DNA from: a virus
Taxonomy: Duplodnaviria > Caudoviricetes
DNA: 24,873 bases
Reading direction: 5' to 3' (one strand)
IMG/VR virus record: IMGVR_UViG_3300017747_000749
Coordinates: 1 to 24,873 of that record
How positions within the stretch are numbered: position 1 is the stretch's first letter; each line of letters starts with the position of its first letter. The notes below the pieces were generated by a model, which was not told the origin of the DNA, made no database searches, and worked only from the letters and a program-made list of their open reading frames with translations. Both the position numbers and the translations under genes were made by a program. Shown piece after piece: positions 1,633-18,139 of this stretch.

Positions 1633-2156
1633 AGAGCGTTTAAGATGTCGATTTGACCTTCAGTTAATGCAAACGATGCTTCGAGCTTCTCACGAGTGTA
1701 CTCGCCTTTTGCTATGGCTTGGACTGCCGCTGCAAATCTCTTTTGGTCTATGGCAGGAAGTTTCTTCTCGGTTTTAACTTGCTCTCCTGATGCATCCGTG
1801 TCTTTGTCGGTTACTAAACCAAGAGCTGCTGATAATGCGTAACGTCTAAAATAAGTTACTCCGCTACCAAAAGACTGAAAGTCATTCATTCCCTTTAGTT
1901 GTACATAAGGTATAGCTACTGCACTTGTCATATTCTCGCCAGTCTCAACGTGAAATATCATTGTTTCTAAACCAGTATCTCCATCCTTTGTAAAGATGTT
2001 TTGAGTAAATCCGAGTCCGTGTTTTTTTAGCAACGGATTGATTACCTCAAAGATTTTAGGCAAGTCAGCATAAGAATAGCCGTAGCCTTGTGTTGCCTTG
2101 TGGATTACAGGCACTTCTTGTTGGAATGCAGCCAACGATTTTAATAGATTTTTCAT
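1629..2156 (-). CDS. erf: ERF-family ssDNA annealing protein
   Basis: YSYADL and QSFGSGVTYFRRYALSAALGL..DKDTD signature. Confidence 0.9.
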   Translation of the reverse strand: MKNLLKSLAAFQQEVPVIHKATQGYGYSYADLPKIFEVINPLLKKHGLGFTQNIFTKDGDTGLETMIFHVETGENMTSAVAIPYVQLKGMNDFQSFGSGVTYFRRYALSAALGLVTDKDTDASGEQVKTEKKLPAIDQKRFAAAVQAIAKGEYTREKLEASFALTEGQIDILNAL

Positions 2157-2179
2157 AGCGTAAATATTAAATGTTTAGA

Positions 2180-2187
2180 CAAATATA
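2180..2187 (-). promoter_or_regulatory. Bacteroidota sigma70 -7 element (TATATTTG)
   Basis: Matches TAnnTTTG; intergenic, about 24 nt upstream of the erf ATG. Confidence 0.7.
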
Positions 2188-2212
2188 TAAATTATTTAGA
2201 TACGAATATCAA

Positions 2213-2599
2213 TTATGTGATTTTTTTAGCATTTTTTATTTCAAGTAGCGTGTAAGTCTTCTCAACTCGGTTGTTATTGTCGAAATTCGTTGTCTTTGGC
2301 ATCCGTGTATCTGTAGTCCATTCAGGATTTAATTCACTCAAATCAAATACATACACTCCTTTTGGTGTTGAATTAATGTACAAAGGCTTGTAGCCAGTTT
2401 CAACGTAAGATAAAATCAATGCGAAATACTTTTCACGCTCCAATATCAAACTATCGTAATGCGTTTTACGACATTTAAGTTCTATTCTATATTGAAACTT
2501 GTGGCTTAAGCAATCCCATCTGCTGAATTGATATTCTGATTTCTGAAGGTCAGCTATGAATCCTTTTTTCAATAAGTCGAATAATTCACTTTCCTGCAT
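2213..2599 (-). CDS. PD-(D/E)xK-fold nuclease-like protein
   Basis: N-terminal E, then RWD...IELKCR catalytic-type pattern. Confidence 0.6.
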   Translation of the reverse strand: MQESELFDLLKKGFIADLQKSEYQFSRWDCLSHKFQYRIELKCRKTHYDSLILEREKYFALILSYVETGYKPLYINSTPKGVYVFDLSELNPEWTTDTRMPKTTNFDNNNRVEKTYTLLEIKNAKKIT

Positions 2600-3107
2600 C
2601 TTTTATCTTTTGTTTGTAGGTTTTTATCAATTCCTGTAGTTCATAGTTCGTGTACTTCCGTATTTCATTAGCACGTTGGCTTAAATCGTCTAATTTAGCC
2701 TCTCCGATGCGTTTTAAGAGACCTTCTCGGTAGTTCAGTAGGTTTCCGTGCTTGAACTGATTACAAGTGACGCATTGAGCGTGTACGTTATCTTCATCAA
2801 AAGTTACTGATTTGTGTCCTCCCATAGAGTAGAAATGTCCTGCGTCATACTTTGAGTCAAGTTTTGAGCCGCAACTGATGCAAGGTTGAGCTTTATCCCT
2901 GAGCCTGATGTATTGGTTGAATACCTTTTGTGCTTCTTTCATCCAATCAGAGTTCGTCTTTATGTCGTTCTTCATTCGTGTTTTAGTCTGCTTCCATTGC
3001 TTCTCTTTGGCTTCAGCTACAAAAGCACGGACGCACTCGTCTTTAAGGCAGTATTTATGATTGAAGCGGATAGGCTCAAACTTCTCCTTGCAGTTCTTGC
3101 ACCTCAT
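2586..3107 (-). CDS. ninG: NinG/Rap-family recombination endonuclease
   Basis: CxxC N-terminus; FNQYIRLRD, CISCG, DAGH and NVHAQCVTCN motifs. Confidence 0.9.
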   Translation of the reverse strand: MRCKNCKEKFEPIRFNHKYCLKDECVRAFVAEAKEKQWKQTKTRMKNDIKTNSDWMKEAQKVFNQYIRLRDKAQPCISCGSKLDSKYDAGHFYSMGGHKSVTFDEDNVHAQCVTCNQFKHGNLLNYREGLLKRIGEAKLDDLSQRANEIRKYTNYELQELIKTYKQKIKDAGK

Positions 3108-3796
3108 AACTCAAGTTTTAATTGTAGTTTTTCTATTGGGATAAATTCTTGATTAATTTTATCACTTTGCTGATAATTAAACCCTGATTTTTGTTCGTTT
3201 TTTGGATAAGGTTCTTGATTCCAAATTGTTTTTAAATTGTCATCGTAAATAATTAGATACCTGTGCTTTCTTGATTTTATTCTCCATTCACCTTTTAAAC
3301 CCTTGCACTTTCCTCTTTGTAATTTTATAAATGAACCGTCTTCTTGTAGGATAAAAAAATCTTTTTTTTGTGAAGTCAATCCGTAGTATTGAAAATTACA
3401 GGCTTGGTAAATATATCCACTATGATAATCACTATCTGCATACGTCAACAATGCAACCACATTTTTTATTTTTCTCAATAATCTAATGCTTGATGATAAG
3501 AAAAACGATGTGATATTTTTTTCGTGTTTATGTGGGTTCAGACATAATCTACCAAGCTCCATAAAACCTTCTAAATTGTATGTATCTAATCCAAAACAAC
3601 CTTTGGCAATTTCTTTTGCTGACACACTATGAAAAATACATACACCAACCAACAAATTAGTTTCTTTTTCGATTAAACCAAAATTAATACCACTTCTAAA
3701 ATTTCCTTCTTCGTGTAAATAATGGTACTCATCTAATAGCTTTTTAGCACTATTCCTGCTGATTTTTTCAATTATATATTTTTCCTTCAATTTCAT
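3104..3796 (-). CDS. Mom-family DNA adenine modification protein (GNAT-like)
   Basis: HYLH, ELGRLC, SFFLS, LTYAD and HSGYIYQACNF motifs typical of Mu Mom homologues. Confidence 0.8.
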   Translation of the reverse strand: MKLKEKYIIEKISRNSAKKLLDEYHYLHEEGNFRSGINFGLIEKETNLLVGVCIFHSVSAKEIAKGCFGLDTYNLEGFMELGRLCLNPHKHEKNITSFFLSSSIRLLRKIKNVVALLTYADSDYHSGYIYQACNFQYYGLTSQKKDFFILQEDGSFIKLQRGKCKGLKGEWRIKSRKHRYLIIYDDNLKTIWNQEPYPKNEQKSGFNYQQSDKINQEFIPIEKLQLKLEL

Positions 3797-3807
3797 AGCG
3801 TGTTTTT

Positions 3808-4065
3808 TTAGTCTAATTCAATTACTTCCTCAATCCATTGGCGAAACAAAATCTGCAACTGAATCTGCTCGTCAAATATCTTACCTGCGTTCTCTCCGTC
3901 TATTCGTAGGATGTCGCGGTCTACTCGTTGGATTTCTTCTGCAAGCATATTTGCTTTGCGCTTGAGTCCTTGCTTAAAGACGTACTGGTCGTTTAAATCC
4001 TCAATGAAGTCTGCCAACACAGGAAGGAAGGCGGTCAATGCTACTAATTTTTTTTCGATTTTCAT
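3808..4065 (-). CDS. hypothetical protein
   Basis: 85-aa ORF in operon. Confidence 0.7.
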   Translation of the reverse strand: MKIEKKLVALTAFLPVLADFIEDLNDQYVFKQGLKRKANMLAEEIQRVDRDILRIDGENAGKIFDEQIQLQILFRQWIEEVIELD

Positions 4066-4068
4066 ATT

Positions 4069-4170
4069 TTATTTTTTAGGTTTATATGCGTTTAATCTTA
4101 ATGCTTTGTGTTCGTCTTTTGTTAGTGGTTTAACACCTTGTTGTTTTATCAACTTTTGCAGTTTAGTCAT
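4069..4170 (-). CDS. 33-aa basic peptide
   Basis: Read by hand: MTKLQKLIKQQGVKPLTKDEHKALRLNAYKPKK; ATGA overlap with the upstream stop. Confidence 0.55.
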   Translation of the reverse strand: MTKLQKLIKQQGVKPLTKDEHKALRLNAYKPKK

Positions 4171-4463
4171 AATTCAATGTTCTTATATTTGATTTCGTCT
4201 TGTAATTCTTGGTATGCTACTCGCAGTTGAGCATTTCTTCTTGCCAGTTGGTTAAGCTCTCGGTTCAGATTTGTTATTTCGTCTTCAAGTAGAGTTATCA
4301 CCTGAATCGTCTCAAGTAAATACTCCTCACTTTCCTTTCCTCCGTTGATGTAGTCCTTAGCTTCAGGCTTGTCCTTTTCGAGTTTCTCTCTAACGTTCTT
4401 GATTCGTTCTTTAACCGTCCAAACGGTTGTTTTTGCCCATAGTATTTTAAGTGATAAGTCCAT
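4167..4463 (-). CDS. hypothetical coiled-coil protein
   Basis: Heptad-like C-terminus; 1 nt from the helicase stop. Confidence 0.7.
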   Translation of the reverse strand: MDLSLKILWAKTTVWTVKERIKNVREKLEKDKPEAKDYINGGKESEEYLLETIQVITLLEDEITNLNRELNQLARRNAQLRVAYQELQDEIKYKNIEL

Positions 4464-4464
4464 T

Positions 4465-5499
4465 TTAAAAAGGGTTTTGGTTTGCTAATCTAAGAAGTTT
4501 TGCCGATGTGCTTTCTATTTGTCCGTCTTTTGGTATCTCAATTTTACGTTGTGATTCCTTATTGTAAGTAGTGCCTCGGTTTGCATAAACTCGGTTACCT
4601 TTGAAGTCAAGCATATAATACTGGTAGCGGTCTACGTCCAAAAACATTTTGTAAACTCCGTTTTTTGATACACCTTTTGGTTTGCTTTTGGCAACTTTCA
4701 AATGCACTTCGTTTTTTTCAGCTCCTACACCATCTGCATCTCCAAGTCCGTAAGGTGGTCTCCACGGAATTAACACGCTTAAACCCTTTCTAAACCATAC
4801 TTGCCCGCCTGCAAAATCTCGTGCCGTAGGAATAGGAAAATATCTAAGCTCAGTTCCTGCTATTGACATTGCAGTTACCATTGGTTGGTCTCTAACGTGA
4901 TTAATAACGCAGTTGTGTCTGCCTGTTTTTCTTGCGTTTTTACGAACTAACCCTAAAATCCTACTCAAATATTTATCCTCACGTCCTAAATCAGCAGGAA
5001 TAAACTCCTCGGTTAACTCATTCCACGGGTCAATAGTAGTTGTATGGATTTTAATACCTTCTTTGCGCTCAATCTCGTCTACAAGTTTATAGAATTTCGT
5101 GATAGTCAAATCTTCATCAATTGGGTCTACAACAATGAAATGCTCATTTATAAACATCTCAGCACTTACCTGCTCGCTATTAGTCATTGAGTTTTGACCT
5201 TGAACGTATGGTTTACCTATGTACTTGTAGCATAGTTCAGAAAATATCTCAGCACTACTCCCAGTCTCAGGTGAAAATACTACGTGATTCCAACCGTGCA
5301 AACAGGAAAGGTTTATAAGTATCTCAAACCATAGTTCCGTCTTTCCTGATGCAGGAGCTGCACCTATGTAAGTTGTAGTTCCTTCTTTGATTGTAAGTGG
5401 TAGCATCTCGTAATCCCAACCTATTGACTTTCCTCGTACGTCTTTTTCGTGTCTAATACTAAACATTTCAGCATTTAGGTCTGTTAATTTCTTGTACAT
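4465..5499 (-). CDS. DnaB/RecA-family replicative helicase
   Basis: Walker A GAAPASGKT, FSPE, Walker B-like TIDPWN; follows the initiator. Confidence 0.8.
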   Translation of the reverse strand: MYKKLTDLNAEMFSIRHEKDVRGKSIGWDYEMLPLTIKEGTTTYIGAAPASGKTELWFEILINLSCLHGWNHVVFSPETGSSAEIFSELCYKYIGKPYVQGQNSMTNSEQVSAEMFINEHFIVVDPIDEDLTITKFYKLVDEIERKEGIKIHTTTIDPWNELTEEFIPADLGREDKYLSRILGLVRKNARKTGRHNCVINHVRDQPMVTAMSIAGTELRYFPIPTARDFAGGQVWFRKGLSVLIPWRPPYGLGDADGVGAEKNEVHLKVAKSKPKGVSKNGVYKMFLDVDRYQYYMLDFKGNRVYANRGTTYNKESQRKIEIPKDGQIESTSAKLLRLANQNPF

Positions 5500-5502
5500 A
5501 TT

Positions 5503-6111
5503 CTATCCCTCCCAAATTTCAGATGGTAAACTATAAGATATTTCGTTTATATACGGAAGCGTATTTAGTAACGTAGACTTCCAATTTGAAATAGGTTGCA
5601 ATTTACCATTTCTATTTATACTCCAATCACTCTCTTTCCAACTTTCGTATTTAAGTCTTAAATCTATCTGACTGACTTTTGGTTTCTTATCTAAAGCATA
5701 AGCTAAAAACTCTTGAAATGATGGTATAGTATTATTCTTTATTTCTTTACTTTCTTTAGTTGTTGCCCTTTGTTTGACTTGTTGCTTGCCTTTTTCTACG
5801 TCTTCACATTGCAATTTATCCCATTTTATAAGGGTTATAGCCTGCCATTTGTTTGTCGTGTAGCGTGCCACTTCTTTAGACCTTTCTAACTTTTCCATTG
5901 CTACCCTTGTTTGCTTGACCGAAAGACCTATTTCTTTGGAAAGATTTTCCCAACTGGTAACATATGTACCCGCTTTTATTGTTTGCCCTTTCCATTCCTT
6001 GTCTTTGTAATTTACCGAAATAAGCAAATGTAAAAGTAAACGTGTTGCGTTGTGGTCATCATACCACTCCCAGTCTTTTAAACTGCGGTGTAATTTAATC
6101 CAACTGCTCAT
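5503..6111 (-). CDS. phage replication initiator / replisome organiser
   Basis: N-terminal WIKLHR..WEWY, HTH region, low-complexity linker, C-terminal NWKS motif. Confidence 0.8.
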   Translation of the reverse strand: MSSWIKLHRSLKDWEWYDDHNATRLLLHLLISVNYKDKEWKGQTIKAGTYVTSWENLSKEIGLSVKQTRVAMEKLERSKEVARYTTNKWQAITLIKWDKLQCEDVEKGKQQVKQRATTKESKEIKNNTIPSFQEFLAYALDKKPKVSQIDLRLKYESWKESDWSINRNGKLQPISNWKSTLLNTLPYINEISYSLPSEIWEG

Positions 6112-6277
6112 TGCTAAAATTTTCTAAAGTTTTGATTAAGGTGTACGCTTGTTTAATGTCAATGCAAACCGTTTTTGATTCTTCACCTTCTATAATTTCA
6201 AAGCATATGAAATCGCCTTTAGAAACAATCATTTGGTCTTTGTCATTAAATTGACATTTAAAATAAATTTCGTTCAT
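6095..6277 (-). CDS. hypothetical protein (start revised to MNEIYF)
   Basis: The start at 6316 lies inside a terminator hairpin; ATG 6277 has an A-rich context. Confidence 0.6.
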   Translation of the reverse strand: MNEIYFKCQFNDKDQMIVSKGDFICFEIIEGEESKTVCIDIKQAYTLIKTLENFSNEQLD

Positions 6278-6296
6278 TTTGTAATTTTTAGTAAAT

Positions 6297-6387
6297 AAAA
6301 AACCCCTGCATCTCATCGCGGCTGGACTTGCGAATCAATACAAGGGTCAATAATACCTTAGAGTTTATGGTGTCCAGCCAACTCTCC
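6297..6387 (-). ncRNA. two-hairpin kissing-loop leader RNA ending in an intrinsic terminator
   Basis: Hairpin loops contain GGCUGGAC and GUCCAGCC (perfect complements); U-tract after hairpin 2. Confidence 0.7.
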
Positions 6388-6389
6388 TA

Positions 6390-6397
6390 CAAATATA
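6390..6397 (-). promoter_or_regulatory. Bacteroidota -7 element (TATATTTG)
   Basis: TAnnTTTG immediately upstream of the structured leader; no clear -33 element. Confidence 0.65.
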
Positions 6398-6402
6398 ACT
6401 AA

Positions 6403-6813
6403 CTAACTTGCATTTTGTTTCGTTTGTTGAAAACTCATTTGATGGTCGTATCTTCCTTCGTTTAACCAACGTCTGATTCTTCGTAGTTTTTCTAAGTTAC
6501 TGGCTTTTGCTATATCGTCAAAGATATTCCGTCTTTGTCTACTAAACGTCAACGGCTCAGACATTAGCTCCTGACAAGATTCAGTTATTCCACGATACAA
6601 TTTGTCGTTCTTTAACTCTTCGTGTTTCCGTATGGAGTGAATTACAGTTGCGTGATTTCGGTTAAAAATTCTGCCTATCTGCGACAATGTAAGCTGATTT
6701 GTTTTGTACAATGCCCAACATAAATAGTGTCTTCTAAAGACGTAGAAATGCTCTCTGCTCTTTCCATTTAAACCTTCCGACTCAATGTATTCTTTTACTT
6801 GTTCTAAGTTCAT
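6403..6813 (-). CDS. DnaA C-terminal-like HTH protein
   Basis: TLSQIGRIFNRNHATVIHSIRK matches the DnaA domain IV pattern; no AAA+ domain. Confidence 0.8.
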   Translation of the reverse strand: MNLEQVKEYIESEGLNGKSREHFYVFRRHYLCWALYKTNQLTLSQIGRIFNRNHATVIHSIRKHEELKNDKLYRGITESCQELMSEPLTFSRQRRNIFDDIAKASNLEKLRRIRRWLNEGRYDHQMSFQQTKQNAS

Positions 6814-6956
6814 AGCGGTTTAATTATAAATTTTCCATCGTTGTACCTTCCTGATTCTATTAAGTCCATTTTTTTCCAGTAACATAGACTCTTTGAAGTG
6901 AATATCCACTCTTGGACTACTGCAAGTCCGACTTGGTATGTAAGTTTAAATCTCAT
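6810..6956 (-). CDS. 48-aa hypothetical protein
   Basis: Read by hand: MRFKLTYQVGLAVVQEWIFTSKSLCYWKKMDLIESGRYNDGKFIIKPL; ATGA overlaps on both sides. Confidence 0.65.
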   Translation of the reverse strand: MRFKLTYQVGLAVVQEWIFTSKSLCYWKKMDLIESGRYNDGKFIIKPL

Positions 6957-7027
6957 AGCTTGGTGTATTTAATTTCGCAAATTCTGTTATATAAATCGTA
7001 ATTAAAGTTTGTCCAAAAACGTTCCAT
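6953..7027 (-). CDS. 24-aa peptide
   Basis: MERFWTNFNYDLYNRICEIKYTKL; 3' part of the listed 6953..7258 ORF, starting just after the 7038 stop. Confidence 0.5.
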   Translation of the reverse strand: MERFWTNFNYDLYNRICEIKYTKL

Positions 7028-7037
7028 TCGTTGGCGG

Positions 7038-7340
7038 TTAAACGAACCAGTTAGATTCATCGTCAAAGTCTGAGTAGGTATAACAAGCGTAGCAGAACTC
7101 GTGAAACAAGTCTCTTGCTCTTTCAAGTAGTTCGTCTTGGAGTAGTTCGATTTCTTTGATAGTTGGGTTGGTATGGAATTCTGCTGACTCCACTTTCCAT
7201 TCGTCCGTATATTCATCGTATTCGTATTTAAGTTCGATTGTAGCCACTTGTTCATCATCTTGTAAGGTGTAGCATTCTACCTTAATTAAACCTTGTGAAA
7301 CCTTCTGCTCCACGTCAGTAAACCAATATTTATCTTCCAT
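7038..7340 (-). CDS. acidic hypothetical early protein
   Basis: 100-aa D/E-rich ORF overlapping the upstream stop. Confidence 0.7.
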   Translation of the reverse strand: MEDKYWFTDVEQKVSQGLIKVECYTLQDDEQVATIELKYEYDEYTDEWKVESAEFHTNPTIKEIELLQDELLERARDLFHEFCYACYTYSDFDDESNWFV

Positions 7341-7563
7341 AAGTATAGCAATGTTCAGCGTATTTAGTGTATGACTTAGGTAGTTCGTAAGTGCGTTTAC
7401 CTTTGATTTGGTTGTCCGTCTTTTTGACGTCTAATACTGGCATTGAATTAGTCGATGCTAACCACACCATAAAGATTGTACCTGCGATGAATGTTACCAC
7501 ACCACCGAGAATCTGACGCTCGTCTTGGTTGAGGTCAGAGAATAAGAATTTAAGCGTTTTCAT
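7330..7563 (-). CDS. single-transmembrane early protein
   Basis: Hydrophobic ILGGVVTFIAGTIFMVWLA; start revised to MKTLKF. Confidence 0.65.
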   Translation of the reverse strand: MKTLKFLFSDLNQDERQILGGVVTFIAGTIFMVWLASTNSMPVLDVKKTDNQIKGKRTYELPKSYTKYAEHCYTYGR

Positions 7564-7735
7564 TTTCTTCGATTGTTTCAATGTTTTCTAAAATACCCAA
7601 TACCGCATTCCATTGTGCAGATGCATAAGTTGTTGATTCGTGTTTACGACCATACATTCTGCGTAACTCGGTAAATTCAAAGTAAAGAGTCTGCTCTTCT
7701 CCTTTAATAAATTTGATAATTTCTTCTTTTGTCAT
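7550..7735 (-). CDS. first gene of early operon, hypothetical
   Basis: Start revised to MTKEEII, downstream of the promoter at 7772-7779 and within an ACGCTATG motif. Confidence 0.7.
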   Translation of the reverse strand: MTKEEIIKFIKGEEQTLYFEFTELRRMYGRKHESTTYASAQWNAVLGILENIETIEENENA

Positions 7736-7771
7736 AGCGTTTAATTTTTGTGTTTGTAAATTAGTTATATG

Positions 7772-7801
7772 CAAATATATATACTTATTCTGAATTATCA
7801 A
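7772..7801 (-). promoter_or_regulatory. early promoter TTG-N19-TATATTTG
   Basis: Bacteroidota -33/-7 consensus in an AT-rich intergenic region. Confidence 0.75.
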
Positions 7802-7884
7802 CAAAAAAGTTCCGTTTTCTACAAAATATTTTTAAATTCCTTTATTTTACAAGGCTTTCAGGCGCAAAATTTTTTTATATTAAA

Positions 7885-7936
7885 TAAAAAAAGCCTCCAA
7901 ATGAAGGCTCTTTACGCTATGAGTAGAATGGTTAGG
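7885..7936 (-). ncRNA. putative ~50-nt antisense sRNA with terminator
   Basis: TATATTTG at 7941-7948, then seed UCAUAGCGUAAA, then hairpin AGCCUUC-AUUU-GGAGGCU and U-tract; ends approximate. Confidence 0.6.
7886..7909 (-). terminator. intrinsic terminator
   Basis: 7-bp stem with one GU pair, followed by a U-tract. Confidence 0.75.
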
Positions 7937-7940
7937 TAAG

Positions 7941-7948
7941 CAAATATA
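7941..7948 (-). promoter_or_regulatory. Bacteroidota -7 element (TATATTTG) with no downstream ORF
   Basis: Same octamer as the other early promoters; followed only by about 55 nt ending in a terminator. Confidence 0.55.
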
Positions 7949-8983
7949 CTAAAAAATGTGTGTCAAACGAGCAACCTGTCCAAATTCTTTGTGATGAATG
8001 AAGCCTTCAACTGCTTTCGGAACACCCGTGTAGCCGTTTCGGTGATGCCAGCTATCAGTTCCTGAAGGTGAGCGCAATGATTCTACTGTAACTCCGATGT
8101 AATCCTTTGACGTTTTGTGATGAACGTGGTGCGTGTAAACGTAGCGGTGCTTGGTCTGACTCCATTCAACAGGAAACTCAGTTGCCATCAATAAAGGTAA
8201 GTCTTGATGTTTCGCTCCATCTCCGTGAGTCGTTCCGATAAGGTTCTTTCCGTATTGGAAGCCTTTTCGATGTGCAATAGAGCAGTCAAAAGATATGTTC
8301 TTAGCATCTTTAAACCAAGTCTGAATAACGTCAGCAAGAAAGAAGCCGTGAGTATAATCGTGATTTGAGGGATTGAAAGTGAAATGTACATCAGCCACCC
8401 CAATGAGTTTTTCAAGAATTTCGACATAAAGTTTTTTAGCTATTAGAAAGTTTGAGTACCACATTCCATCCGTGTCTTGTGGAGTTCCTGACGTTGTAGT
8501 CCGTTTTGGAGTATCGATGTGCAGAATGTCGTTTCCGCCTATAAATAGAATCTTGTCGATATGAAATCCGCTTGCTTTGTCTAAAATGCCTTGTACGCCT
8601 TCTAAGACACGTTGTACTGCGATTTGGTTGTTATATACTTCTCCTACTTCGAAAGCATCGCAGAGCTTACCTATGTGTATGTCTGCAGGGTCTATGACTA
8701 ATAAGTGTCCGTCTTTGCTTTGAGTCCGTGTTATTGTAGGATATTTCGGTGCATAAACACGAATCTCATCTAATATACTGGCACGAATCTTCTCGTAATT
8801 CTGCTCTTCCTGTTCCTTAAAGTTTGGATTTTTAAAGAACAATGAAGCATTCTTTGATTTTAGCCAACCGTGTTTAACGTCAGCATCGTTTAAGCCCATC
8901 TCATTGGACTCTCTTTGAATTGCACGGTATTGAGAAACTATCTCAAATTCTTCTCGTGTAATTCTTGGTCTGAATTTACTCAT
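7949..8983 (-). CDS. calcineurin-like metallophosphoesterase
   Basis: DIH, GND, NHD, HGD and HVH metal-binding motifs in canonical order. Confidence 0.8.
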   Translation of the reverse strand: MSKFRPRITREEFEIVSQYRAIQRESNEMGLNDADVKHGWLKSKNASLFFKNPNFKEQEEQNYEKIRASILDEIRVYAPKYPTITRTQSKDGHLLVIDPADIHIGKLCDAFEVGEVYNNQIAVQRVLEGVQGILDKASGFHIDKILFIGGNDILHIDTPKRTTTSGTPQDTDGMWYSNFLIAKKLYVEILEKLIGVADVHFTFNPSNHDYTHGFFLADVIQTWFKDAKNISFDCSIAHRKGFQYGKNLIGTTHGDGAKHQDLPLLMATEFPVEWSQTKHRYVYTHHVHHKTSKDYIGVTVESLRSPSGTDSWHHRNGYTGVPKAVEGFIHHKEFGQVARLTHIF

Positions 8984-9904: not shown

Positions 9905-9918
9905 ATATCTTTTTATTG

Positions 9919-9926
9919 CAAAGATA
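9919..9926 (-). promoter_or_regulatory. -7 element (TATCTTTG) for the HNH gene
   Basis: TAnnTTTG about 15 nt upstream of ATG 9904. Confidence 0.6.
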
Positions 9927-9946
9927 TAACTATTATGCATATAGAG

Positions 9947-10411
9947 TTAAAAGTTTACTTCAAAATGTTGCCAATCGTAGTTCTTTTCTTTACCAAGTGA
10001 AATAAATCCGTGTTTGTAGAAGATTTCTATCATCGGAGCGTATTCAGGTCGAGCGAATCTTGCAGTCTTACTGGTTTCCTTCAAAGTATTTCGTGCAGGG
10101 TCTAAGTCGATAGCAATACCCCAAGCGTGCTTACTCCAAGACGAACCGCCACGCATTTTACGAAAGTTAAAACATCCGCCGTAAAGGTCGATACCAAGCT
10201 CCACTATCTTATTATACCCATATACCTCTAAAAGTTCGTTAAACACGCTTAAAAACGCATCTGCTACGTCTTTGTGGCAACGCATCTTTGTTACTTTAGA
10301 ATCAGTATCCCAAGCAATGCGCATTGGATAAGGTAGGTTAATGGTTTTTAGATACGTTCCCTTTTCGTTAGGTTGTCCGTATTTTTGTAAGGCTTGTGCG
10401 GTTGTTAGCAT
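9947..10411 (-). CDS. endolysin, M15-family peptidase
   Basis: R...[10 protein letters not shown] (SxHxxGxAxD) and C-terminal DWQHFE. Confidence 0.88.
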
Positions 10412-10509
10412 ATATTAAGTGTTTTTCTCCTTAATTAAGTAAATAACCCCCGACAACAGTATCATCGGTGGAACGCAGGGCAGTTCCTATGGTATGCGTC
10501 TGCGTGAGG

Positions 10510-10932
10510 TTACTTTAATTCTTCTACTTGCTCTTTGCTACGTTTAACAAAGGCTATAAACTTATCCCAAACATTGATACCAGTAACCGAGAAGTAACTC
10601 TCGTTGATTGACTTTACTTCCGTGAATACGCAGAACGCAGTAAATGCTTTTGTGAGTAGTAAGTCAACTGAAATGAAATATCCTAATAAATCAGCTAAGA
10701 TGAACTTTTCAAGTAAGAAGATAAATACTATCGCACCTGAGTACAAAAGGCTCTTAGAAATCGTATTAGAAAGCCTACGAGAGCGAATAGATGCCCATCC
10801 GTTTTTACGTACACTTCTCCAAATTCCAAAGAACATATCGAGAACAATAGTTGCTACTGCCATAAGCACCATCGGCTTAACTGGTGCTAAGACGGAAATC
10901 ATAGAAATAATGAGGATAGATTTAGTTTTCAT
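10510..10932 (-). CDS. holin
   Basis: Several TM segments, D..FG, EVKSINE motif; upstream of endolysin; start revised to MKTKSI. Confidence 0.78.
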   Translation of the reverse strand: MKTKSILIISMISVLAPVKPMVLMAVATIVLDMFFGIWRSVRKNGWASIRSRRLSNTISKSLLYSGAIVFIFLLEKFILADLLGYFISVDLLLTKAFTAFCVFTEVKSINESYFSVTGINVWDKFIAFVKRSKEQVEELK

Positions 10933-11080
10933 AATTTTCAATAACGTGCCAAGTAAGGTAAAAAGCAATACAAGCGGCAAAGAGTTTATGATACAGGTGT
11001 TCTCCTTCAAATATTAAAGCTATAGAAGTAGCGTAGCCACATAAGAAGTACATTGCTCCTATTGCTTCCTTATGCTTCAT
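10922..11080 (-). CDS. 52-aa small membrane protein
   Basis: Read by hand: MKHKEAIGAMYFLCGYATSIALIFEGEHLYHKLFAACIAFYLTWHVIENYEN; overlaps both neighbours. Confidence 0.6.
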   Translation of the reverse strand: MKHKEAIGAMYFLCGYATSIALIFEGEHLYHKLFAACIAFYLTWHVIENYEN

Positions 11081-11273
11081 CTACAGGTGTGTATTCAACT
11101 CGCTCAAGTGCATCGAGTTGTTCGTGAATCTCGCTAAAGTTTGGGTCATTCAAGACCTCAAGACCTACGATAAATTTTCCACTTCCGTCAATAGCAAAAA
11201 TCAAAATGCTTTCGTTTTTTCGGTAGCCGTTAAGTTGAGCGTACTGCTCATTGTTTGCGTGTAGAACTATCAT
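11070..11273 (-). CDS. hypothetical protein, possible fibre-associated chaperone
   Basis: ATGA-coupled to the fibre-like gene. Confidence 0.6.
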   Translation of the reverse strand: MIVLHANNEQYAQLNGYRKNESILIFAIDGSGKFIVGLEVLNDPNFSEIHEQLDALERVEYTPVDEA

Positions 11274-12139
11274 AATGAATTTTTATAAGTATTCCAATCT
11301 GCGATAAATGCCGAGTGTTCAGAAATCAACGATGCGCCCATTGCATACGCTGCACAAGTGTGACTTCCAAATGTTGTAAATCCTTTCAGTATAAATTGAT
11401 TCACTGATAATACTGACGTTGATGCTTGAATCAATGTTGAGCCTGTTGTACTATTGTAAAGCGTTACACTTGTTGAACTTGTACGATGTATTGACTTGGT
11501 GTTAACCGCAGTAGTGTAATCAAACATACCGCTTAATGTTCCAGTCGTACCCGAGTTTATTCTATGTGAAGTAACATTCCCTCGAGTTATACTATTTGAG
11601 TTTGTTGCGTCTACTCCATCAAATCTACCTGTACCTACTGCGTGACTAAAGAAATAGCGTGAAGCATCATTTAAAGTATAATTTACACCTTGCGTTGCGG
11701 GATTAAAGTTAGTGTTAATATAGCTGCTTGTTCCGTTACCTTGAAAACCTCCATTATTTACAAATGTAGGGGAGCTTACAAGTGTGCTTTGATTAGCGTT
11801 AGGATTCTTCCAATTTAAAGTAGCAAATGCGCTACCACCATCTTGAGCAAACACGTAAAACACGTCAAGTTTAGACCACACGCCTGAAGCCTTGAGGGAA
11901 GCAAGTAACGTGTTTTGCTTTAGTTTAACGGCATCAGATGGCAATGTATAACCCAAAGTAGTTGCCTTATCTAAAATTGCTTGGTATTCGTCTTCATATG
12001 CAAAGCCTACAATGTCAGTTAAGCCTGCCCAAGATAACTCGTGAGAATCTCCCCACGAAATAGAATTGTTGACTGCTCCTTGACCCCATCCAATGGAGTT
12101 GTTAGATGCTCCGTCTCCCCATCCGTTGCTATTTGCCAT
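11270..12139 (-). CDS. fibre / receptor-binding-like structural protein
   Basis: N-terminal WG repeats; S/T/G/N-rich beta-type C-terminus (GNGTSSYINT). Confidence 0.55.
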   Translation of the reverse strand: MANSNGWGDGASNNSIGWGQGAVNNSISWGDSHELSWAGLTDIVGFAYEDEYQAILDKATTLGYTLPSDAVKLKQNTLLASLKASGVWSKLDVFYVFAQDGGSAFATLNWKNPNANQSTLVSSPTFVNNGGFQGNGTSSYINTNFNPATQGVNYTLNDASRYFFSHAVGTGRFDGVDATNSNSITRGNVTSHRINSGTTGTLSGMFDYTTAVNTKSIHRTSSTSVTLYNSTTGSTLIQASTSVLSVNQFILKGFTTFGSHTCAAYAMGASLISEHSAFIADWNTYKNSL

Positions 12140-12227
12140 CTTTGTTTAGTTTAGTTAGAAAAACACGGAGTTTCTCAATGTTCTCTTGTTTTGGTTTATA
12201 CGTTCCTACCTTTGTTCGTGTTCTCAT
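12129..12227 (-). CDS. 32-aa basic peptide
   Basis: Read by hand: MRTRTKVGTYKPKQENIEKLRVFLTKLNKDGK; ATGA-coupled. Confidence 0.6.
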   Translation of the reverse strand: MRTRTKVGTYKPKQENIEKLRVFLTKLNKDGK

Positions 12228-12724
12228 AGATACCAACCTGTGTAATTATTTGACGTGTCAGGATACATATCCCCGTTAGTGTTCGTAGTGTACTCAGGGA
12301 ATAAGTCATTGTTGAAGCAGATGTAGTCAATGAATCTCTCAGTATAGTGCTGAGCAATCTGACGCTCTTTCTCGATTAAAAAGTCTACTTCGTTTTTTTC
12401 TACGTTCTCGCTATTCTCAGACGAATGCTTGTAGACACCTTTGTTAGCGATTGTATAAGCCGCAAAAGGGAGATATTCCACCATTGCCCAATGGATTAGC
12501 ATTGGCTTGACGTAAGTCTCTACCAAAGTTTCGTAGTTACCAGTAAGAGTACCTGCTACGATGTCAGCTTGAATCTTCTGCAGTAACTTCGTACCTAAAT
12601 AGTTTTGAATGTGAATATCTTGAGATATTTTGACGAATTGTATGAACTTGTCAGTATCTACGTTACCATTTACCGCAGTAAATCGAACTAAATCGTCTCT
12701 TGTTATGAGTAGTGCAGTTGCCAT
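12224..12724 (-). CDS. probable head-tail adaptor
   Basis: Helical 166-aa protein directly after portal; QDIHIQNYLG motif. Confidence 0.6.
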   Translation of the reverse strand: MATALLITRDDLVRFTAVNGNVDTDKFIQFVKISQDIHIQNYLGTKLLQKIQADIVAGTLTGNYETLVETYVKPMLIHWAMVEYLPFAAYTIANKGVYKHSSENSENVEKNEVDFLIEKERQIAQHYTERFIDYICFNNDLFPEYTTNTNGDMYPDTSNNYTGWYL

Positions 12725-14514
12725 TATTTATCTCCGTAAATTGGGTTAGTAGGTAAAAAGCCGTTATGTGGCATATCAACAGGTCTTACAAATACTTCTT
12801 GTGGATTCCTAACTCGATATCCTGCTTTTTCTGCTTTGTTAGTGCTGATTGTTTTAGCGTTTGGATTGGTTGGGTCAATTCCCATACCCTCCTCAAATGA
12901 TACATAAGTTCTACGCAACCATTTGTGATGGCAGTTACCTCCGCCTTTGTATTTAAAAATGTCGTATGTAGCAGCTCCGTTAGCACCCCATCCTGCATTT
13001 ACAGGTTGATTGCTCATTCTAACGATGTCTTCTTTACGATAAACCTTATTTGCAGCAGTCATCTTCTTGCAGAACTCACGAGATTTAGCAGATGTATCAC
13101 CTGAATAAACGTAGCGAGTAATGAATTGGAATCCGTCAATAACTTTGTCTTGCTCTGACTTGGCTTTAGGATTCGCAGTTCCTGTACTTACGAAGTTGTA
13201 AACTTTAGATAAAAGTGATTGCTTAGGTTTGCTTGCCATTTCTATTTCTGCGTCTATTGCATCTTCTTGGTCAAGGTCAACCTCAAACTCATCAATCAAC
13301 ACCCACTTTTCATCAGGCATCTCTCCGCACTCAATGAGTGCATCAGCAATTTCTTTGTCAAGTCTTTCGTGTTTGCTTAACTCAGTTCCTGTTTCCTCAG
13401 CTACTTGCTCTTGGTTTTGAGCGTTCTCCAAATCCGTAAATTCAAGCGGTTTAAGCGTCTTAAAGAATAAGTTTAGGGATATGCCGTTAAATGCTAAGAT
13501 AGTGTCTAAGGCTTCAAGTATTTCATCCTGAAGTGGCTTAATCACCATATTGTTAAATAGGATAAACGAGTTTTGAAGCTCGTCAGCGTTAGAACTGAAT
13601 CCGTTAGCACCTGCAATACCGAAAAGTAGCGGAGATGTTACGTTGTGTCCAAGCATAATCTTTCTCATACACTCCTCACTTAAATATGTGTAGTGTTCAG
13701 GAGCATCATTCAAAGGCAAATCGTCAACGGTTGTTTTCGTGTCCATATTGTCGTTGAACGCTACGATAACTTTCTGACCTTTGCTACCAGTCAACTTACC
13801 TAAGACTTTGTTTGTAATGATTGATTGTTGCTCCTCAGTAGGCACTCCGTTATTGAAGTTGACCACTTTAGTTCCTGAAAATCCGTTCTGAACCTCGTTG
13901 ATTAAGTAATCAGCTATCTCTTCCTCTAAAAGTGCGTAAGGTACTGCGCCTTGGTAGTCAGGATAAGCGTAATACTTCATACCTACTGCGTAAGGCTTAG
14001 AGAATAGTATCTCAATCTTGTCTTTAGAGTATCCGTATGCAGGTATTCTTTTAGGCGGGTATTTCTTTACATCAGTCCAATCGTCAGAATAGTAGTAGGC
14101 TTCAATTTCTCCGTCTTTATTGCACTTCTCAGCACGCAATAAGTTTACTGGCATATGGAAAGCCTTTAGGATTCTATCGTGCTTATCGTTGTAGTGTACC
14201 TGAATAGCGAACTGACCAAGCATCTTTCTATCGATTGCAATCTTACGCAAGCACTCTTTGTTGAAAAGAGCCATCGCCTGAGCGTATTCGTTAGGCTTAC
14301 GAGAAGCATCAGTTGCACTCAATCCACGCCCATAGACAAGACGTGAGATATTATTGATAATTGCGTTGTTTGTAGTGGAGTTAGTGTATCTATCCAAGAG
14401 GAAAGAGTAGTAGTTGTTATCTTCTCCAAAGTCAACCCACGCATCACGCTTACTCTCCTGAATGACGGGAGTAGTGTATGCGGATAGATTTAAGACGTGT
14501 ACGTTGTTACTCAT
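12724..14514 (-). CDS. portal protein with C-terminal extension
   Basis: Size, position and portal-like motifs (NGFSG, IMLGH.V.SP.LFG, IKPLQ); extra domain with SREFC and GGGNCHHKW. Confidence 0.75.
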   Translation of the reverse strand: MSNNVHVLNLSAYTTPVIQESKRDAWVDFGEDNNYYSFLLDRYTNSTTNNAIINNISRLVYGRGLSATDASRKPNEYAQAMALFNKECLRKIAIDRKMLGQFAIQVHYNDKHDRILKAFHMPVNLLRAEKCNKDGEIEAYYYSDDWTDVKKYPPKRIPAYGYSKDKIEILFSKPYAVGMKYYAYPDYQGAVPYALLEEEIADYLINEVQNGFSGTKVVNFNNGVPTEEQQSIITNKVLGKLTGSKGQKVIVAFNDNMDTKTTVDDLPLNDAPEHYTYLSEECMRKIMLGHNVTSPLLFGIAGANGFSSNADELQNSFILFNNMVIKPLQDEILEALDTILAFNGISLNLFFKTLKPLEFTDLENAQNQEQVAEETGTELSKHERLDKEIADALIECGEMPDEKWVLIDEFEVDLDQEDAIDAEIEMASKPKQSLLSKVYNFVSTGTANPKAKSEQDKVIDGFQFITRYVYSGDTSAKSREFCKKMTAANKVYRKEDIVRMSNQPVNAGWGANGAATYDIFKYKGGGNCHHKWLRRTYVSFEEGMGIDPTNPNAKTISTNKAEKAGYRVRNPQEVFVRPVDMPHNGFLPTNPIYGDK

Positions 14515-14836
14515 AAACTATGAACGTATTTGATGTAGTGTTAGATGTATATTGTCCGTTATTTACGGAGAATGAGACGATGTTTTGGTCAGTACAAAAG
14601 ATTCTATCCTTGTAAACGATGTCCGTGTTTTTGTAAAGTACCAAATCGTAAAAATGTCCTTCTTTTAAAGCGAAAGTCGCCGTAATAGTATTTACGTAAT
14701 CTCCGCTTGTTTGAGATGTGATAGCTACCGTTACTGGTGTGTTCGTTTGGTCATCCGTAATTACCATTGATGTAGGTATGTCTCTTGGAATAAAAGAGAA
14801 GGTTTGTGCGGATGTAGATGTCGTTAGTACAATCAT
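14507..14836 (-). CDS. structural hypothetical protein (beta-rich)
   Basis: Start revised to MIVLTT because the longer start lies in a terminator. Confidence 0.65.
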   Translation of the reverse strand: MIVLTTSTSAQTFSFIPRDIPTSMVITDDQTNTPVTVAITSQTSGDYVNTITATFALKEGHFYDLVLYKNTDIVYKDRIFCTDQNIVSFSVNNGQYTSNTTSNTFIVYE

Positions 14837-14875
14837 ATTAAAGTAACTAAGATTGTAGCGATTTGTTTTAAATGC

Positions 14876-14899
14876 AAAAAGGGTAGCCAAAGCCACCCT
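14876..14899 (-). terminator. intrinsic terminator
   Basis: AGGGUGGC-UUUG-GCUACCCU stem followed by U residues. Confidence 0.75.
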
Positions 14900-14923
14900 C
14901 TTTACACGCTATGAAGAAAACGA

Positions 14924-15484
14924 TTATGCAGTTACGATAGTAGCCGTTCCGAATACATCTCCTGCTGAACCTGCAAGACCTGCTTCGTTAGTACAATCAA
15001 GAAGATTGGCGAGCAAAGTCTCGGTCGCTACAAAAGTCAAGGTATATCCGTTTAGGTCACCCATTGCAGTACCATTTGACACGTTAGCAGTAGTCAATTC
15101 TGAGCCGTGTTCAAGACCCATTAAGAAGAATTGGTTGTTGCGGTTGCGAACTACGATGTGCGGTCTTCCGTAAGCTAACAATTTAACTGACTTGTGTGTA
15201 GTAGCATCTTGCTTCTTTAAAGTCATTGTTAAAGTTTGCTCAACGAATGTAGTTCCGTTTTCACGAGAAGAGTTTACAACTTGCTCAAAAGAGTTAGTTC
15301 CTTTAAGTTCGTATTTGTAGAGAGAAGATACGTTACCTACCGTGTCGATAGTATCAGTACCTGCTACATAAGCTACGTCAGTTTCAGGATTGAAATCCCC
15401 GTAGTTAATGAAGTATACTGCATCGATACCACCGACTGCGTCTTTACATACTTCCAAGCGTCCATTTGCTAAATCACAAGACAT
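14924..15484 (-). CDS. major structural protein, probably tail tube
   Basis: Beta-rich 186-aa protein after the capsid gene, with its own terminator; C...CKD.VGGI and GYTLTF motifs. Confidence 0.55.
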   Translation of the reverse strand: MSCDLANGRLEVCKDAVGGIDAVYFINYGDFNPETDVAYVAGTDTIDTVGNVSSLYKYELKGTNSFEQVVNSSRENGTTFVEQTLTMTLKKQDATTHKSVKLLAYGRPHIVVRNRNNQFFLMGLEHGSELTTANVSNGTAMGDLNGYTLTFVATETLLANLLDCTNEAGLAGSAGDVFGTATIVTA

Positions 15485-15506
15485 ATTTTTAAGTTTTAAA
15501 TGTTAT

Positions 15507-15540
15507 AAAAAAGGGAGGGAAGTTTTTTACCGCCCTCCCC
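15507..15540 (-). terminator. terminator after major capsid gene
   Basis: GGGAGGG/CCCTCCC stem plus U6. Confidence 0.75.
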
Positions 15541-15562
15541 GATTATTTGAGTTTAGCTAAGA

Positions 15563-16513
15563 TTAGTTAGCAGAGTTTGTGATTCCGTAAGTAACAACGT
15601 CAGAAGCAAAACCATATTTAGCGTCTGCGGTGAAGCGCATAACTACACGTACGTTTTGTGAACCATCGATGTCACCCATATCCAAAACTTTAACTTCGTT
15701 CATATCAGAAAGAAGACCAGTAGCGAAGTAAAGGTTAGATTTTTGAGTCAACAATGCGGTGTTAGCAGCAAGACCGTTAGCCATAAATACACGAACACCG
15801 TCAAAGTATACGTCACCAAGAACTTGGTTTGTACCTTTGTTATCGTAACCATTAGCACCTACACCTGAAGCAGCGAAGCCACCCAATGCACGAACATAAG
15901 CACGATAGATATTAGAAGAAACGTAAAGAGTCAAATCTTCTTTTCCGTAAAGAGCAGCAGGACAAGCGTCAACGATTTTACCAAGCTCAGTAATTACGTT
16001 AGCAGCGGTTACAGTAGTACCAGCAACTTCTTGAGCAGCAGGGAGGTTTGCGTCAGTAGTCAACTGAGTCATAATACCTGCAAACTGACCTGCAGTTGCG
16101 TTAACACCTTGCCAAATTGAAGTCTCCATACCTGCAGCAACTTTCTCAGCAGCGTGTGCGATTAAGAAGTCAGCGAAAGATTTAGGAAGAACGTCAAATG
16201 CAGAGTAACCCATTTGAATGGCATCCCAATCGCTGCGAAAGTCTGACTTGCACAATTGTAACGCAACTTGGAAGCTCTCTGGCTGTAATATCTTCTCTGT
16301 CAATGTGATAGTAGACGTAGGGTCAAAATCACAAGTAGCGTTTTTGATGATGTCATCAGTAGCAACGCGTTTGATAACTTGCTTATATTTGACGTTAGGC
16401 ATAATAGTGATACCGCCTTTGTCGAGGGTTGGAGCAGACAATAAAGCTGCTGCGATGTACTTACCTGCGAACTCGCCTGCGTAAGTAGTAGTGATTGAAG
16501 TTGTTGTTGGCAT
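15563..16513 (-). CDS. major capsid protein
   Basis: 316 aa; order protease-scaffold-this gene-terminator. Confidence 0.75.
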   Translation of the reverse strand: MPTTTSITTTYAGEFAGKYIAAALLSAPTLDKGGITIMPNVKYKQVIKRVATDDIIKNATCDFDPTSTITLTEKILQPESFQVALQLCKSDFRSDWDAIQMGYSAFDVLPKSFADFLIAHAAEKVAAGMETSIWQGVNATAGQFAGIMTQLTTDANLPAAQEVAGTTVTAANVITELGKIVDACPAALYGKEDLTLYVSSNIYRAYVRALGGFAASGVGANGYDNKGTNQVLGDVYFDGVRVFMANGLAANTALLTQKSNLYFATGLLSDMNEVKVLDMGDIDGSQNVRVVMRFTADAKYGFASDVVTYGITNSAN

Positions 16514-16534
16514 TTCTTCGTTTAAATTAAATTA

Positions 16535-17137
16535 TTAAATGTTATTGAATTTTTCAAGGATTGAATCCATTGTAGAACGACTGCGATTTTTAGCAAGGCG
16601 CATTACTTCTACTTTAGTTTCGTTTTCAGGGTTGAATGAAATAGGTTTAGGCTCTTCGCTCAATTCAACTGGTGCGACTTCTTCTGCAACTTCAGTAGAT
16701 AAATTGAGTTGTGCTTTCAACTCTTCGTTTTCTTTTTTCAAGGCTTCGATTTCGCTAAAGAAAGATTCTTTAGTTACTGATTCGATGATTTTCTTTGCAG
16801 TAGGTGCAGCAGCCATTTCTTCTTCAGGCATCTTACCTGTTTCAACTTCGGCTTCAGGAGCTTCAACTTCTACCTCTACTTCTGCTTCAGCAGCTTCACG
16901 GATGTCAGCAATGATACCTTCTTCGATTACTACCAAGATGCGACCATCTTCTAACTCATAGTCACCTACAGGAAGTGCAATACGTTGTTCGTCTTCAGTT
17001 AGGATGAACACAGGTTGACCTGCTTCAAATACTTCTGCTTCAAGCATAGATACGCCATCAGTAAGGCGCATAGTTTCCAACTTTACTTCCATTCCAAGAA
17101 GTGTGCGGACTTTGTTTAAAATTGATTTTTCGTTCAT
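16535..17137 (-). CDS. capsid scaffolding protein
   Basis: E-rich coiled-coil, P.GDYELEDG motif, directly upstream of capsid gene. Confidence 0.7.
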   Translation of the reverse strand: MNEKSILNKVRTLLGMEVKLETMRLTDGVSMLEAEVFEAGQPVFILTEDEQRIALPVGDYELEDGRILVVIEEGIIADIREAAEAEVEVEVEAPEAEVETGKMPEEEMAAAPTAKKIIESVTKESFFSEIEALKKENEELKAQLNLSTEVAEEVAPVELSEEPKPISFNPENETKVEVMRLAKNRSRSTMDSILEKFNNI

Positions 17138-17139
17138 AA

Positions 17140-17565
17140 TTAAATTGATAAGATTTGTTTGATGTCTGATTCGTTTCTATCTAAAATTGCGATAGTGTCC
17201 TCAATGTTTGCGGTTAAGTTTACGATTTCTTTTGTTTGTGGAATATCGTTTGGATTTAAACCGACTTCTCTTGCTTGTTTTGATATTTTTTCAATCAAAG
17301 CTACTGCTACTTTAATTTCTTCATTAGCATCATCTCTATCAGCAACCGCACCTAAATAGCCATCTTTTAAATCTCCTTGAACTTTTGCAAATGCAGAAAG
17401 AGCATTGACTGCTTTCTGTGTGGATTTCATAAAAGCACCATCAAGAGCCTTCATTCGGACAACCATTTGTTTAAGGTCATCAATTAAAGCTAATTCTACT
17501 TTGTGCGATTCGAGTTGCACCTCTTCTTTAAAGAGCTTGTTGTAAATTGATTTCTGTGTGTTCAT
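17140..17565 (-). CDS. helical head-region protein (KVELA-type)
   Basis: Similar to 18667..19044 at the N-terminus and in KQAREVG versus KRAKELG. Confidence 0.7.
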   Translation of the reverse strand: MNTQKSIYNKLFKEEVQLESHKVELALIDDLKQMVVRMKALDGAFMKSTQKAVNALSAFAKVQGDLKDGYLGAVADRDDANEEIKVAVALIEKISKQAREVGLNPNDIPQTKEIVNLTANIEDTIAILDRNESDIKQILSI

Positions 17566-17573
17566 ACTATAAT

Positions 17574-17602
17574 AACGTTTTTAGTTTGTGTTGTTGCGTT
17601 TT
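17574..17602 (-). promoter_or_regulatory. putative late promoter AAAAACGCAAC-N16-GTT
   Basis: Same upstream 12-mer and spacing as at 19935-19963. Confidence 0.6.
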
Positions 17603-17616
17603 TATTTTTATGTTTG
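17585..17616 (+). promoter_or_regulatory. host-type promoter TTTG-N20-TATGTTTG
   Basis: Full Bacteroidota -33/-7 consensus. Confidence 0.8.
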
Positions 17617-17630
17617 TCAAAAATTACGCT

Positions 17631-17777
17631 ATGAAAGCAACACAAAAACAAGTAGAACAAGCAAAACATTTTTTAAGCGCAATTTCTATGCTTATAGATA
17701 TGAAAGGAAAGAGTTATTATATGCCGCATATTCATTTGCTTTGGCAGGCTCTTTCGGAAGTAGAAATAGATAATTAA
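17631..17777 (+). CDS. 48-aa hypothetical (moron)
   Basis: MKATQKQVEQ...; follows the promoter; ACGCTATG start. Confidence 0.7.
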   Translation: MKATQKQVEQAKHFLSAISMLIDMKGKSYYMPHIHLLWQALSEVEIDN

Positions 17778-17785
17778 AAAACGCT

Positions 17786-18139
17786 ATGGGATGGACAACA
17801 CATTTTTGGAAGTGCAATAATTGTAATTACGAAACTGTTTACACAAGTAGACAAGCACATCCGAGTAAAAGTCATAAATGCAAAACAATAGAGCGTATGC
17901 AATTTGATATACATACATTTCAAAGAATGGATACTATTCTACATACAGGAGAAAGAGTAAAAGTAACTTGCGGAGACCAATATGAGTATTGGAAAAAAAG
18001 AGTAAATGACCGCATTAAGTACCTAACTCCTTTAATGAATGAAGTAAAAGAAAAAGGATTGAATCTTTGGTGTATATCTAAAGAGTTAAACGAGGAATGG
18101 ATACTGCTAATTGAATCAGTTGAATACCATAATTTTTAA
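17786..18139 (+). CDS. hypothetical protein with N-terminal zinc-finger-like motif (moron)
   Basis: CxxC...HxxxxHxC; ACGCTATG start; followed by terminator. Confidence 0.7.
   Translation: MGWTTHFWKCNNCNYETVYTSRQAHPSKSHKCKTIERMQFDIHTFQRMDTILHTGERVKVTCGDQYEYWKKRVNDRIKYLTPLMNEVKEKGLNLWCISKELNEEWILLIESVEYHNF

Follow-up and report, generated by a model that had tools for sequence, protein, structure and literature searches.

Two predicted small RNAs of a freshwater phage may pair with a tag shared by the start codons of its early genes

The viral record IMGVR_UViG_3300017747_000749 (24,873 nucleotides) was analyzed in full and is referred to here as the window. Two putative RNAs encoded on its minus strand, element 1 and element 2, probably pair over the AUGs of early genes that share the start tag ACGCTATG and together block their translation, which, judged from sequence, would make them similar to the FopS RNAs of Bacteroides but retuned to the phage's own genes. 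The paired starts would be those of erf, a Mom-like gene, the first early gene and the genes of a plus-strand moron. The window is a partial siphophage-type genome of a freshwater, apparently non-integrating phage (completeness estimate 80%, CheckV), and a PHROG scan of 43 proteins identified erf, exonuclease, NinG, Mom-like, helicase, phosphoesterase, portal and capsid genes, erf and the Mom-like gene being assigned via PHROG/Pfam matches.

An exact count gives seven copies of ACGCTATG, the number and positions reported in the first-pass annotation, against a mean of 0.62 and a maximum of 2 in 100 dinucleotide shuffles, in line with its estimate of less than one chance copy. Five copies lie over start codons of early or accessory genes, and the remaining two are reversed and stand ahead of terminator hairpins. 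The five sense copies are, as annotated, the ATGs of erf (2154..2161, minus strand, start 2156), the Mom-like gene (3794..3801, minus, start 3796), the first early gene (7733..7740, minus, start 7735), moron gene 1 (17626..17633, plus, start 17631) and moron gene 2 (17781..17788, plus, start 17786, ACGCTATGG). Three of these genes had been described as first behind a host-type promoter, and a -7 box TAnnTTTG indeed occurs 23, 36 and 14 nt upstream of erf (2180-2187), the first early gene (7772-7779) and moron gene 1 (17609-17616), respectively. In the family of the first early gene, 27 of 29 members start with CTATG.

The shorter word GCTATGA has 10 copies where a mean of 2.65 is expected. Those listed earlier at starts 955 (952..958), 6813 (6810..6816, a gene for a DnaA-type helix-turn-helix protein) and 6956 (6953..6959), all on the minus strand, are present, but in each the upstream gene ends in CTA-TGA, giving an ATGA overlap, and they are weaker candidate targets; a copy lying antisense within a gene (2553-2559, plus strand) had not been listed. 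GCTATG occurs at 6/20 minus-strand early starts and 0/21 late starts (Fisher p=0.009), and at 1/380 non-start sense ATGs of the window. The claim that structural and lysis genes lack the tag agrees with these counts, although a late-region gene with start 19044 carries AACTATGA.

Element 1 (7886..7936, minus) is a predicted small RNA (sRNA) of about 51 nt with an unpaired 5' part, a terminator hairpin and a U run. It is placed at the late-to-early boundary, in the order -7 box TATATTTG (7941..7948, minus), about 14 nt, seed UCAUAGCGU (7914..7922, minus), hairpin (terminator at 7913-7888) and U run, and it would also form the 3' end of the late/lysis transcript. The box is of Bacteroidota type, lies directly past the phosphoesterase stop and would act as a promoter; neither this box nor the resemblance of the core seed to a known host sRNA type had been recognized in the first-pass annotation. 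The spacer between box and seed is never shorter than 4 nt in 54 loci and is exactly 4 nt in 20, a floor that matches an RNA start at +5 as in FopS; the start of element 1 was therefore set at +5, from the FopS model start together with this floor. The predicted fold (-13.3 kcal/mol, z -3.1) leaves the 5' 22 nt and the UCAUAG seed unpaired.

Element 2 (14876..14923, minus) is the 48-nt 3' untranslated region (UTR) of a virion gene (14924-15484) that comes after the capsid gene. It comprises a U tract, the seed (14906-14914) and a terminator without a promoter box, and its fold (z -4.7) includes a weak 4-bp helix over part of the seed. Both reversed copies thus precede terminators, as had been stated, but the second is part of a transcript's 3' UTR and not a stand-alone intergenic gene. 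AAAGAG, previously noted after both copies, is present as part of the predicted terminator stem, 2 nt further out in copy 2. A reading of the reversed copies as micro-open reading frames was rejected, the opposite-strand frames from the seed's ATG having only 1-73 codons and a peptide that is not conserved.

Predicted duplexes of the RNAs with the five tagged starts span 9-15 bp and -13.6 to -19.1 kcal/mol, among them 11 bp at erf (-15.3/-15.4 kcal/mol), -13.7 kcal/mol with element 1 and -19.1 kcal/mol with element 2 at the Mom-like gene, and -18.2 kcal/mol with element 1 at moron gene 2. Among the best 15 sense-strand duplex sites for each RNA, 5 are starts, compared with 0/10 for every one of 12 shuffled seeds, which were scanned in coarser steps. 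The best sites for element 2 also include a near-copy of the tag in the third moron open reading frame (18558-18570, plus), which ends in ATA and not ATG.

Conservation was assessed in relatives. For the whole-genome counts, 40 of 45 records were retrieved; a Lillamyvirus genome and eight records whose genes are ordered differently were set aside, and 33 genomes were kept, the window included. Starts were called with a gene caller blind to positions -6 to -1 and tuned on the window, where it reproduced 40 of 43 hand-set starts. Among 80 phosphoesterase loci, 3 end early and 15 have another gene next, without a terminator within 100 nt; the 62 counted carry CATAG before the terminator in 59 cases (50 with the -7 box and 9 without), TTATAG in two and neither in one. 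In the nine relatives lacking the box, the element-1 seed is plain 3' UTR. The tail-gene loci corresponding to element 2 have CATAG in 74/79 and TTATAG in 5/79, and the terminator of the capsid gene, used as a control, has CATAG in 1/104. The C-to-U seed variants retain a U-G pair, and CATAG is invariant in the alignment of element 1 with relatives and FopS. Spacer and hairpin vary widely among relatives and the U-flanked seed is kept; in 3 of 10 close relatives, both bases of one terminator stem pair are changed. The unit is located behind an inserted gene in three genomes (G004, G017, G035), and the element-2 seed is shifted onto the stop codon in three others (G015, G022, G038).

In the 15 close relatives with the seed CAUAGCGU (seed-CGU genomes), the 80 copies of the 8-mer fall into 48 called starts, 29 antisense pre-terminator copies and 3 others, two of which resemble missed starts. 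With 77/80 copies in two classes of strict strand and context, the motif is not orientation-independent, as the first-pass proposal presupposed. This partition bears on whether ACGCTATG could be a DNA site for a phage repressor, bound in both orientations close to promoters. A -7 box does lie 14-36 nt ahead of three targets and of element 1, and the phage encodes a DnaA-type helix-turn-helix protein (6403-6813); we nevertheless give such a site very little credence, because orientation is constrained, with sense copies as in-frame starts and antisense copies before terminators, the distance to the box varies, no box precedes the Mom-like gene, moron gene 2 or element 2, and the motif is not palindromic.

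Across the 33 genomes, CTATG is found at 176/700 early and 25/807 late starts, in at least a quarter of members in 19/41 early and 1/38 late families, and at 50/67 promoter-first genes compared with 130/643 others. Exceptions among late genes are the phosphoesterase (8/31) and family 34, a small gene 3' of the terminase large subunit that is present in relatives and not in the window. Family 34 has the start AACTATGG in 23/26 genomes, and no other family of the late region has CTATG as a conserved start.

That the tag does no more than provide a strong start context, its reversed copies being chance or relics of lost opposite-strand genes, would fit two observations: about half of the early CTATG starts (90/176) are formed by overlaps with CTA as a Leu codon, and a genuine gene start in a different phage group has this unit on its reverse strand. 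The reported translation optimum at -3 is, however, A and not G, according to PMC6847099; highly expressed virion genes avoid the tag, and the short frames opened by the reversed copies encode no conserved peptide, yet the seed is kept. On sequence grounds this explanation appears largely refuted by seed conservation, motif partition and frame analysis, and we rate it highly improbable.

FopS RNAs, as described in PMC11697453, are promoter-single-stranded seed-terminator RNAs of 65-70 nt with several copies per genome, one of them (FopS-14) derived from a 3' UTR, and stop translation at the start codons of first operon genes in Bacteroides. The same paper reports that start-codon pairing by FopS-10 blocks translation, with compensatory mutants made, and refers to one Caudovirales FopS carrier solely as a potential means of its spread. 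GibS is an sRNA of Bacteroides thetaiotaomicron (PMC7366714), and the core TTCATAG is found in both the GibS oligo and the fopS guide listed in supplement file 4 of PMC11697453. The window RNAs resemble FopS and GibS in the host-type -7 box of element 1 and, by prediction, in a single-stranded 5' part with the UUCAUAG core, an intrinsic terminator, a length of ~50-70 nt, multiple copies, of which one derives from a 3' UTR, and pairing over the start codons of operon-first genes. The core reads UUCUUCAUAG in element 2 and CUCAUAG in element 1, both elements have a predicted Rho-independent terminator hairpin, and relatives with U after the core (seed-U) align with true FopS over ~20 nt. Where FopS has the 3'-extended seed R1' (UAUUAGAU...), the window has CGUAAAG and CGUGUAAAG, the seed-U relatives being closer. 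The window RNAs also differ in being encoded by a freshwater phage, with the seed extension CGU in place of UAUUAGAU, and in that they are predicted to act on early genes of the phage itself, whereas the targets of FopS are host glycan transporters.

The FopS model RF04319 (gathering score 56 bits) does not match the window, either when searched by itself at E<=10 or in the full Rfam scan, which gave only a chance match to a long non-coding RNA; two relatives score below the cut-off (G022, 15.3 bits; G042, 24.7 bits), and the positive control, the true FopS in L206/G049, scores 80.7 bits. The window elements are therefore FopS-like by predicted action and not members of the family. A pattern scan for box, TCATAG and T run gave 120 viral matches, with a terminator hairpin in 37 of 90 distinct matches compared with 7/103 for the control word TATCAG, which has the same dinucleotides. 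One of the matches is the true FopS used as positive control.

Given this likeness, the RNAs could be FopS mimics aimed mainly at the host, repressing messenger RNAs (mRNAs) with CUAUGA starts or soaking up an RbpB-like protein, the matches to phage starts being secondary. FopS targets include SusC-like outer-membrane transporters, and these are possible phage receptors. Support for host mimicry comes from the alignment of seed-U relatives with FopS, the two sub-cut-off model scores and the widespread promoter-UCAUAG-terminator units in viral contigs, many without a match in their own genome. It leaves unexplained why 77/80 extended 8-mers are phage starts or seeds and why G or C stands at -3 against the host optimum, and we consider it unlikely as the main function, although it and self-targeting of early genes are not mutually exclusive.

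Covariation of seed and start had been named beforehand as a check, and it is partly seen, in two comparisons. First, erf starts carry ACGCTATG in all 15 seed-CGU genomes, one of which has a divergent erf subtype, and in 0/11 seed-U genomes, where A is at -3 in 11/11; ACGCTATG starts average 3.2 per genome in the former and 0.8 in the latter. Second, an unrelated seed-G group, which shares few weak homologues with the window family, shows a compensatory change, its seed being UCAUAG-G and its starts C-CUAUG. The base at -3 of its CTATG starts is C in 17/25 (C17/A6/G2), and all of these 17 belong to small genes of G051 and G052 that are not structural; the corresponding counts are G79/A39/T6/C5 in seed-C and A43/G25/C5 in seed-U genomes. 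The difference between seed-U and seed-C at -3 did not persist among free-standing starts, as described below.

A different origin of the pattern would be that early leaders are tuned to FopS-like sRNAs or an RNA-binding protein of the host, the antisense copies in the phage being cis elements or decoys for stability or termination control. The host-type UCAUAG core, the missing promoter of element 2 and the persistence of GCTATG at free early starts whichever seed the phage has would agree with this. A decoy for an anti-AUG sRNA would, however, bear the sense tag and not its antisense, a protein site would not require exact complementarity, and in two unrelated groups the seed extension goes with the start tags of the phage itself, so that we regard such tuning as improbable.

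The motif partition, seed conservation, the unpaired seed predicted for element 1, the early bias, the compensatory change in the seed-G group and the FopS/GibS core agree with the anti-AUG sRNAs suggested in the first-pass annotation. Several results weigh against pairing of the phage RNAs with their own early starts. Ten of the 15 best duplex sites are gene-internal. Of a FopS-type promoter, the -7 box is conserved, but the -33 box is off-consensus, TTG at spacer 19-21 being found in 0/31 element-1-type promoters. Matches in RNA runs (16) are all Logan contigs with small shares, and in the four examined neither strand nor ends were readable. In a within-family test, G prevails at -3 of free-standing early CTATG starts whether the seed has C (54 G, 4 A) or U (18 G, 3 A; p=0.37), which fits U-G wobble but is no covariation. 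The seed classes are clades, and the contrasts are therefore few, about three. In the seed-G group, pairing past 7 bp requires a bulge, and CCTATG also occurs away from starts. Other lineages were represented by 35 clusters from 110 hairpin-positive loci among 219 examined; of those with at least 3 CTATG starts, cluster 5, L227, L238, L398, L408 and L500 mismatch their own seed, and L371 matches it in 3/6. A host or prophage search of GTDB with the capsid protein as query found one 1.4-kb contig in an unrelated metagenome-assembled genome and no host. Matches to a U/A seed are the host default. Self-targeting by an extended seed is thus supported, from the sequence comparisons, in two and perhaps three lineages, and is not general. 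Perfect 14-nt targets in L168, L185 and L212 proved to be the opposite strand of the unit itself, at a head-gene start, and were gone once self-overlap was excluded.

In cluster 1 (28 loci; G041, G055 and G054, L588:10050-10694, plus), the unit of promoter, UCAUAG and terminator forms a cis-antisense RNA gene that lies across a start codon. It overlaps the gene before the capsid gene, which weakly matches window 16535-17137, and is a possible origin of such seeds.

We infer a Bacteroidota host because of the TAnnTTTG boxes before early genes, the scarcity of Shine-Dalgarno-like words (2/45 called window starts) and the nearest cultured matches, namely Flavobacterium Lillamyvirus for the phosphoesterase (64%) and Nonlabens phage P12024 for the capsid (32%). 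TAnnTTTG is the Bacteroidota -7 consensus. In a host group without Shine-Dalgarno pairing, 9-12 bp over the AUG might be enough, and the seed common to the phylum (UCAUAG, fitting any CUAUGA start) would have been extended with CGU to fit the phage's own ACGCUAUG leaders. Element 1, made from its own host-type promoter, could act as a standing brake on early expression, and it would also arise where the lysis-region transcript ends. Element 2 would derive only from the 3' end of the capsid-tail (virion) transcript. Both elements end late transcripts, which suggests a late shut-off, in that both RNAs would accumulate late and turn early translation off as assembly begins.

Phage RNAs that act in trans on their own mRNA through short complementary boxes are known from the c4 antisense RNA of P1/P7 and the P4 CI RNA. 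The c4 RNA controls one antirepressor operon for immunity, whereas the boxes of the window cover the AUGs of five to nine scattered genes. The Rfam C4 model has no match in the window, and an icd-ant antirepressor operon was not among the 43 PHROG-scanned proteins, many small early genes lacking annotation. Lambda OOP and aQ likewise reduce phage gene expression through pairing, but each overlaps one target, while the window elements overlap none and match many, although a cis form, across the start of a head gene, is present in a related phage group; the survey of phage sRNAs that covers both has no occurrence of Bacteroides in its accessible part (PMC12197685). Listings of the openly searchable literature gave no paper on a phage sRNA that silences a whole set of the phage's early genes through a common tag at their starts.

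More tentatively, and with somewhat less than even confidence, Bacteroidota phages may have taken over the host's anti-AUG design of FopS/GibS type as a programmable address system, consisting of a lineage-private seed extension and a matching early-start tag, with seeds in late-transcript 3' ends. In this very abundant family of freshwater phages, the switch from early to late would then be made by RNA only. Should the RNAs act as proposed, a small phage of lytic type would time its expression by a multi-target sRNA regulon on its own genome, the FopS/GibS seed would extend from gut Bacteroides metabolism to aquatic phages, and pairing-based control would be seen to operate without Shine-Dalgarno sequences. 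The natural seed/tag pairs (UCAUAGC/GCUAUGA, UCAUAGG/CCUAUGA) would then be candidate orthogonal switches in Bacteroidota. The tag also aids the calling of starts and early genes in unannotated genomes of these phages.

The cultured relatives P12024S and snork6-1 have CTATG at 2/59 and 1/73 starts, and the seed unit was not found in them. After the holin gene of Nonlabens phage P12024S (L712, ~10150-10245), there is a promoter-terminator unit with a FopS-like U-rich 5' part and no CAU, whose 11-nt complement has one other site (16293), in the leader of the promoter-first gene gp24; this cultured phage offers a test of a related idea. Relative G001 has a weakly sigma-like gene upstream of terminase (E 0.004).

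Upstream of the replication genes in the window (6290-6397, minus), a TATATTTG box is followed by ~95 nt with two alternative pairings (z -3.35), of which a 5' stretch is able to pair with the loop of a terminator-like hairpin. This unit is a candidate attenuator or replication-control RNA, and many relatives have, behind family 20, a promoter-hairpin unit of the same kind that differs in its letters. The word TTGTTGATAA upstream of the first early promoter (7772-7860, minus) is likewise recurrent in many relatives. Between the protease and scaffold genes, the plus-strand morons are flanked by similar-looking unannotated genes (17140-17565 and 18667-19044; family 32, 0-3 copies per genome).

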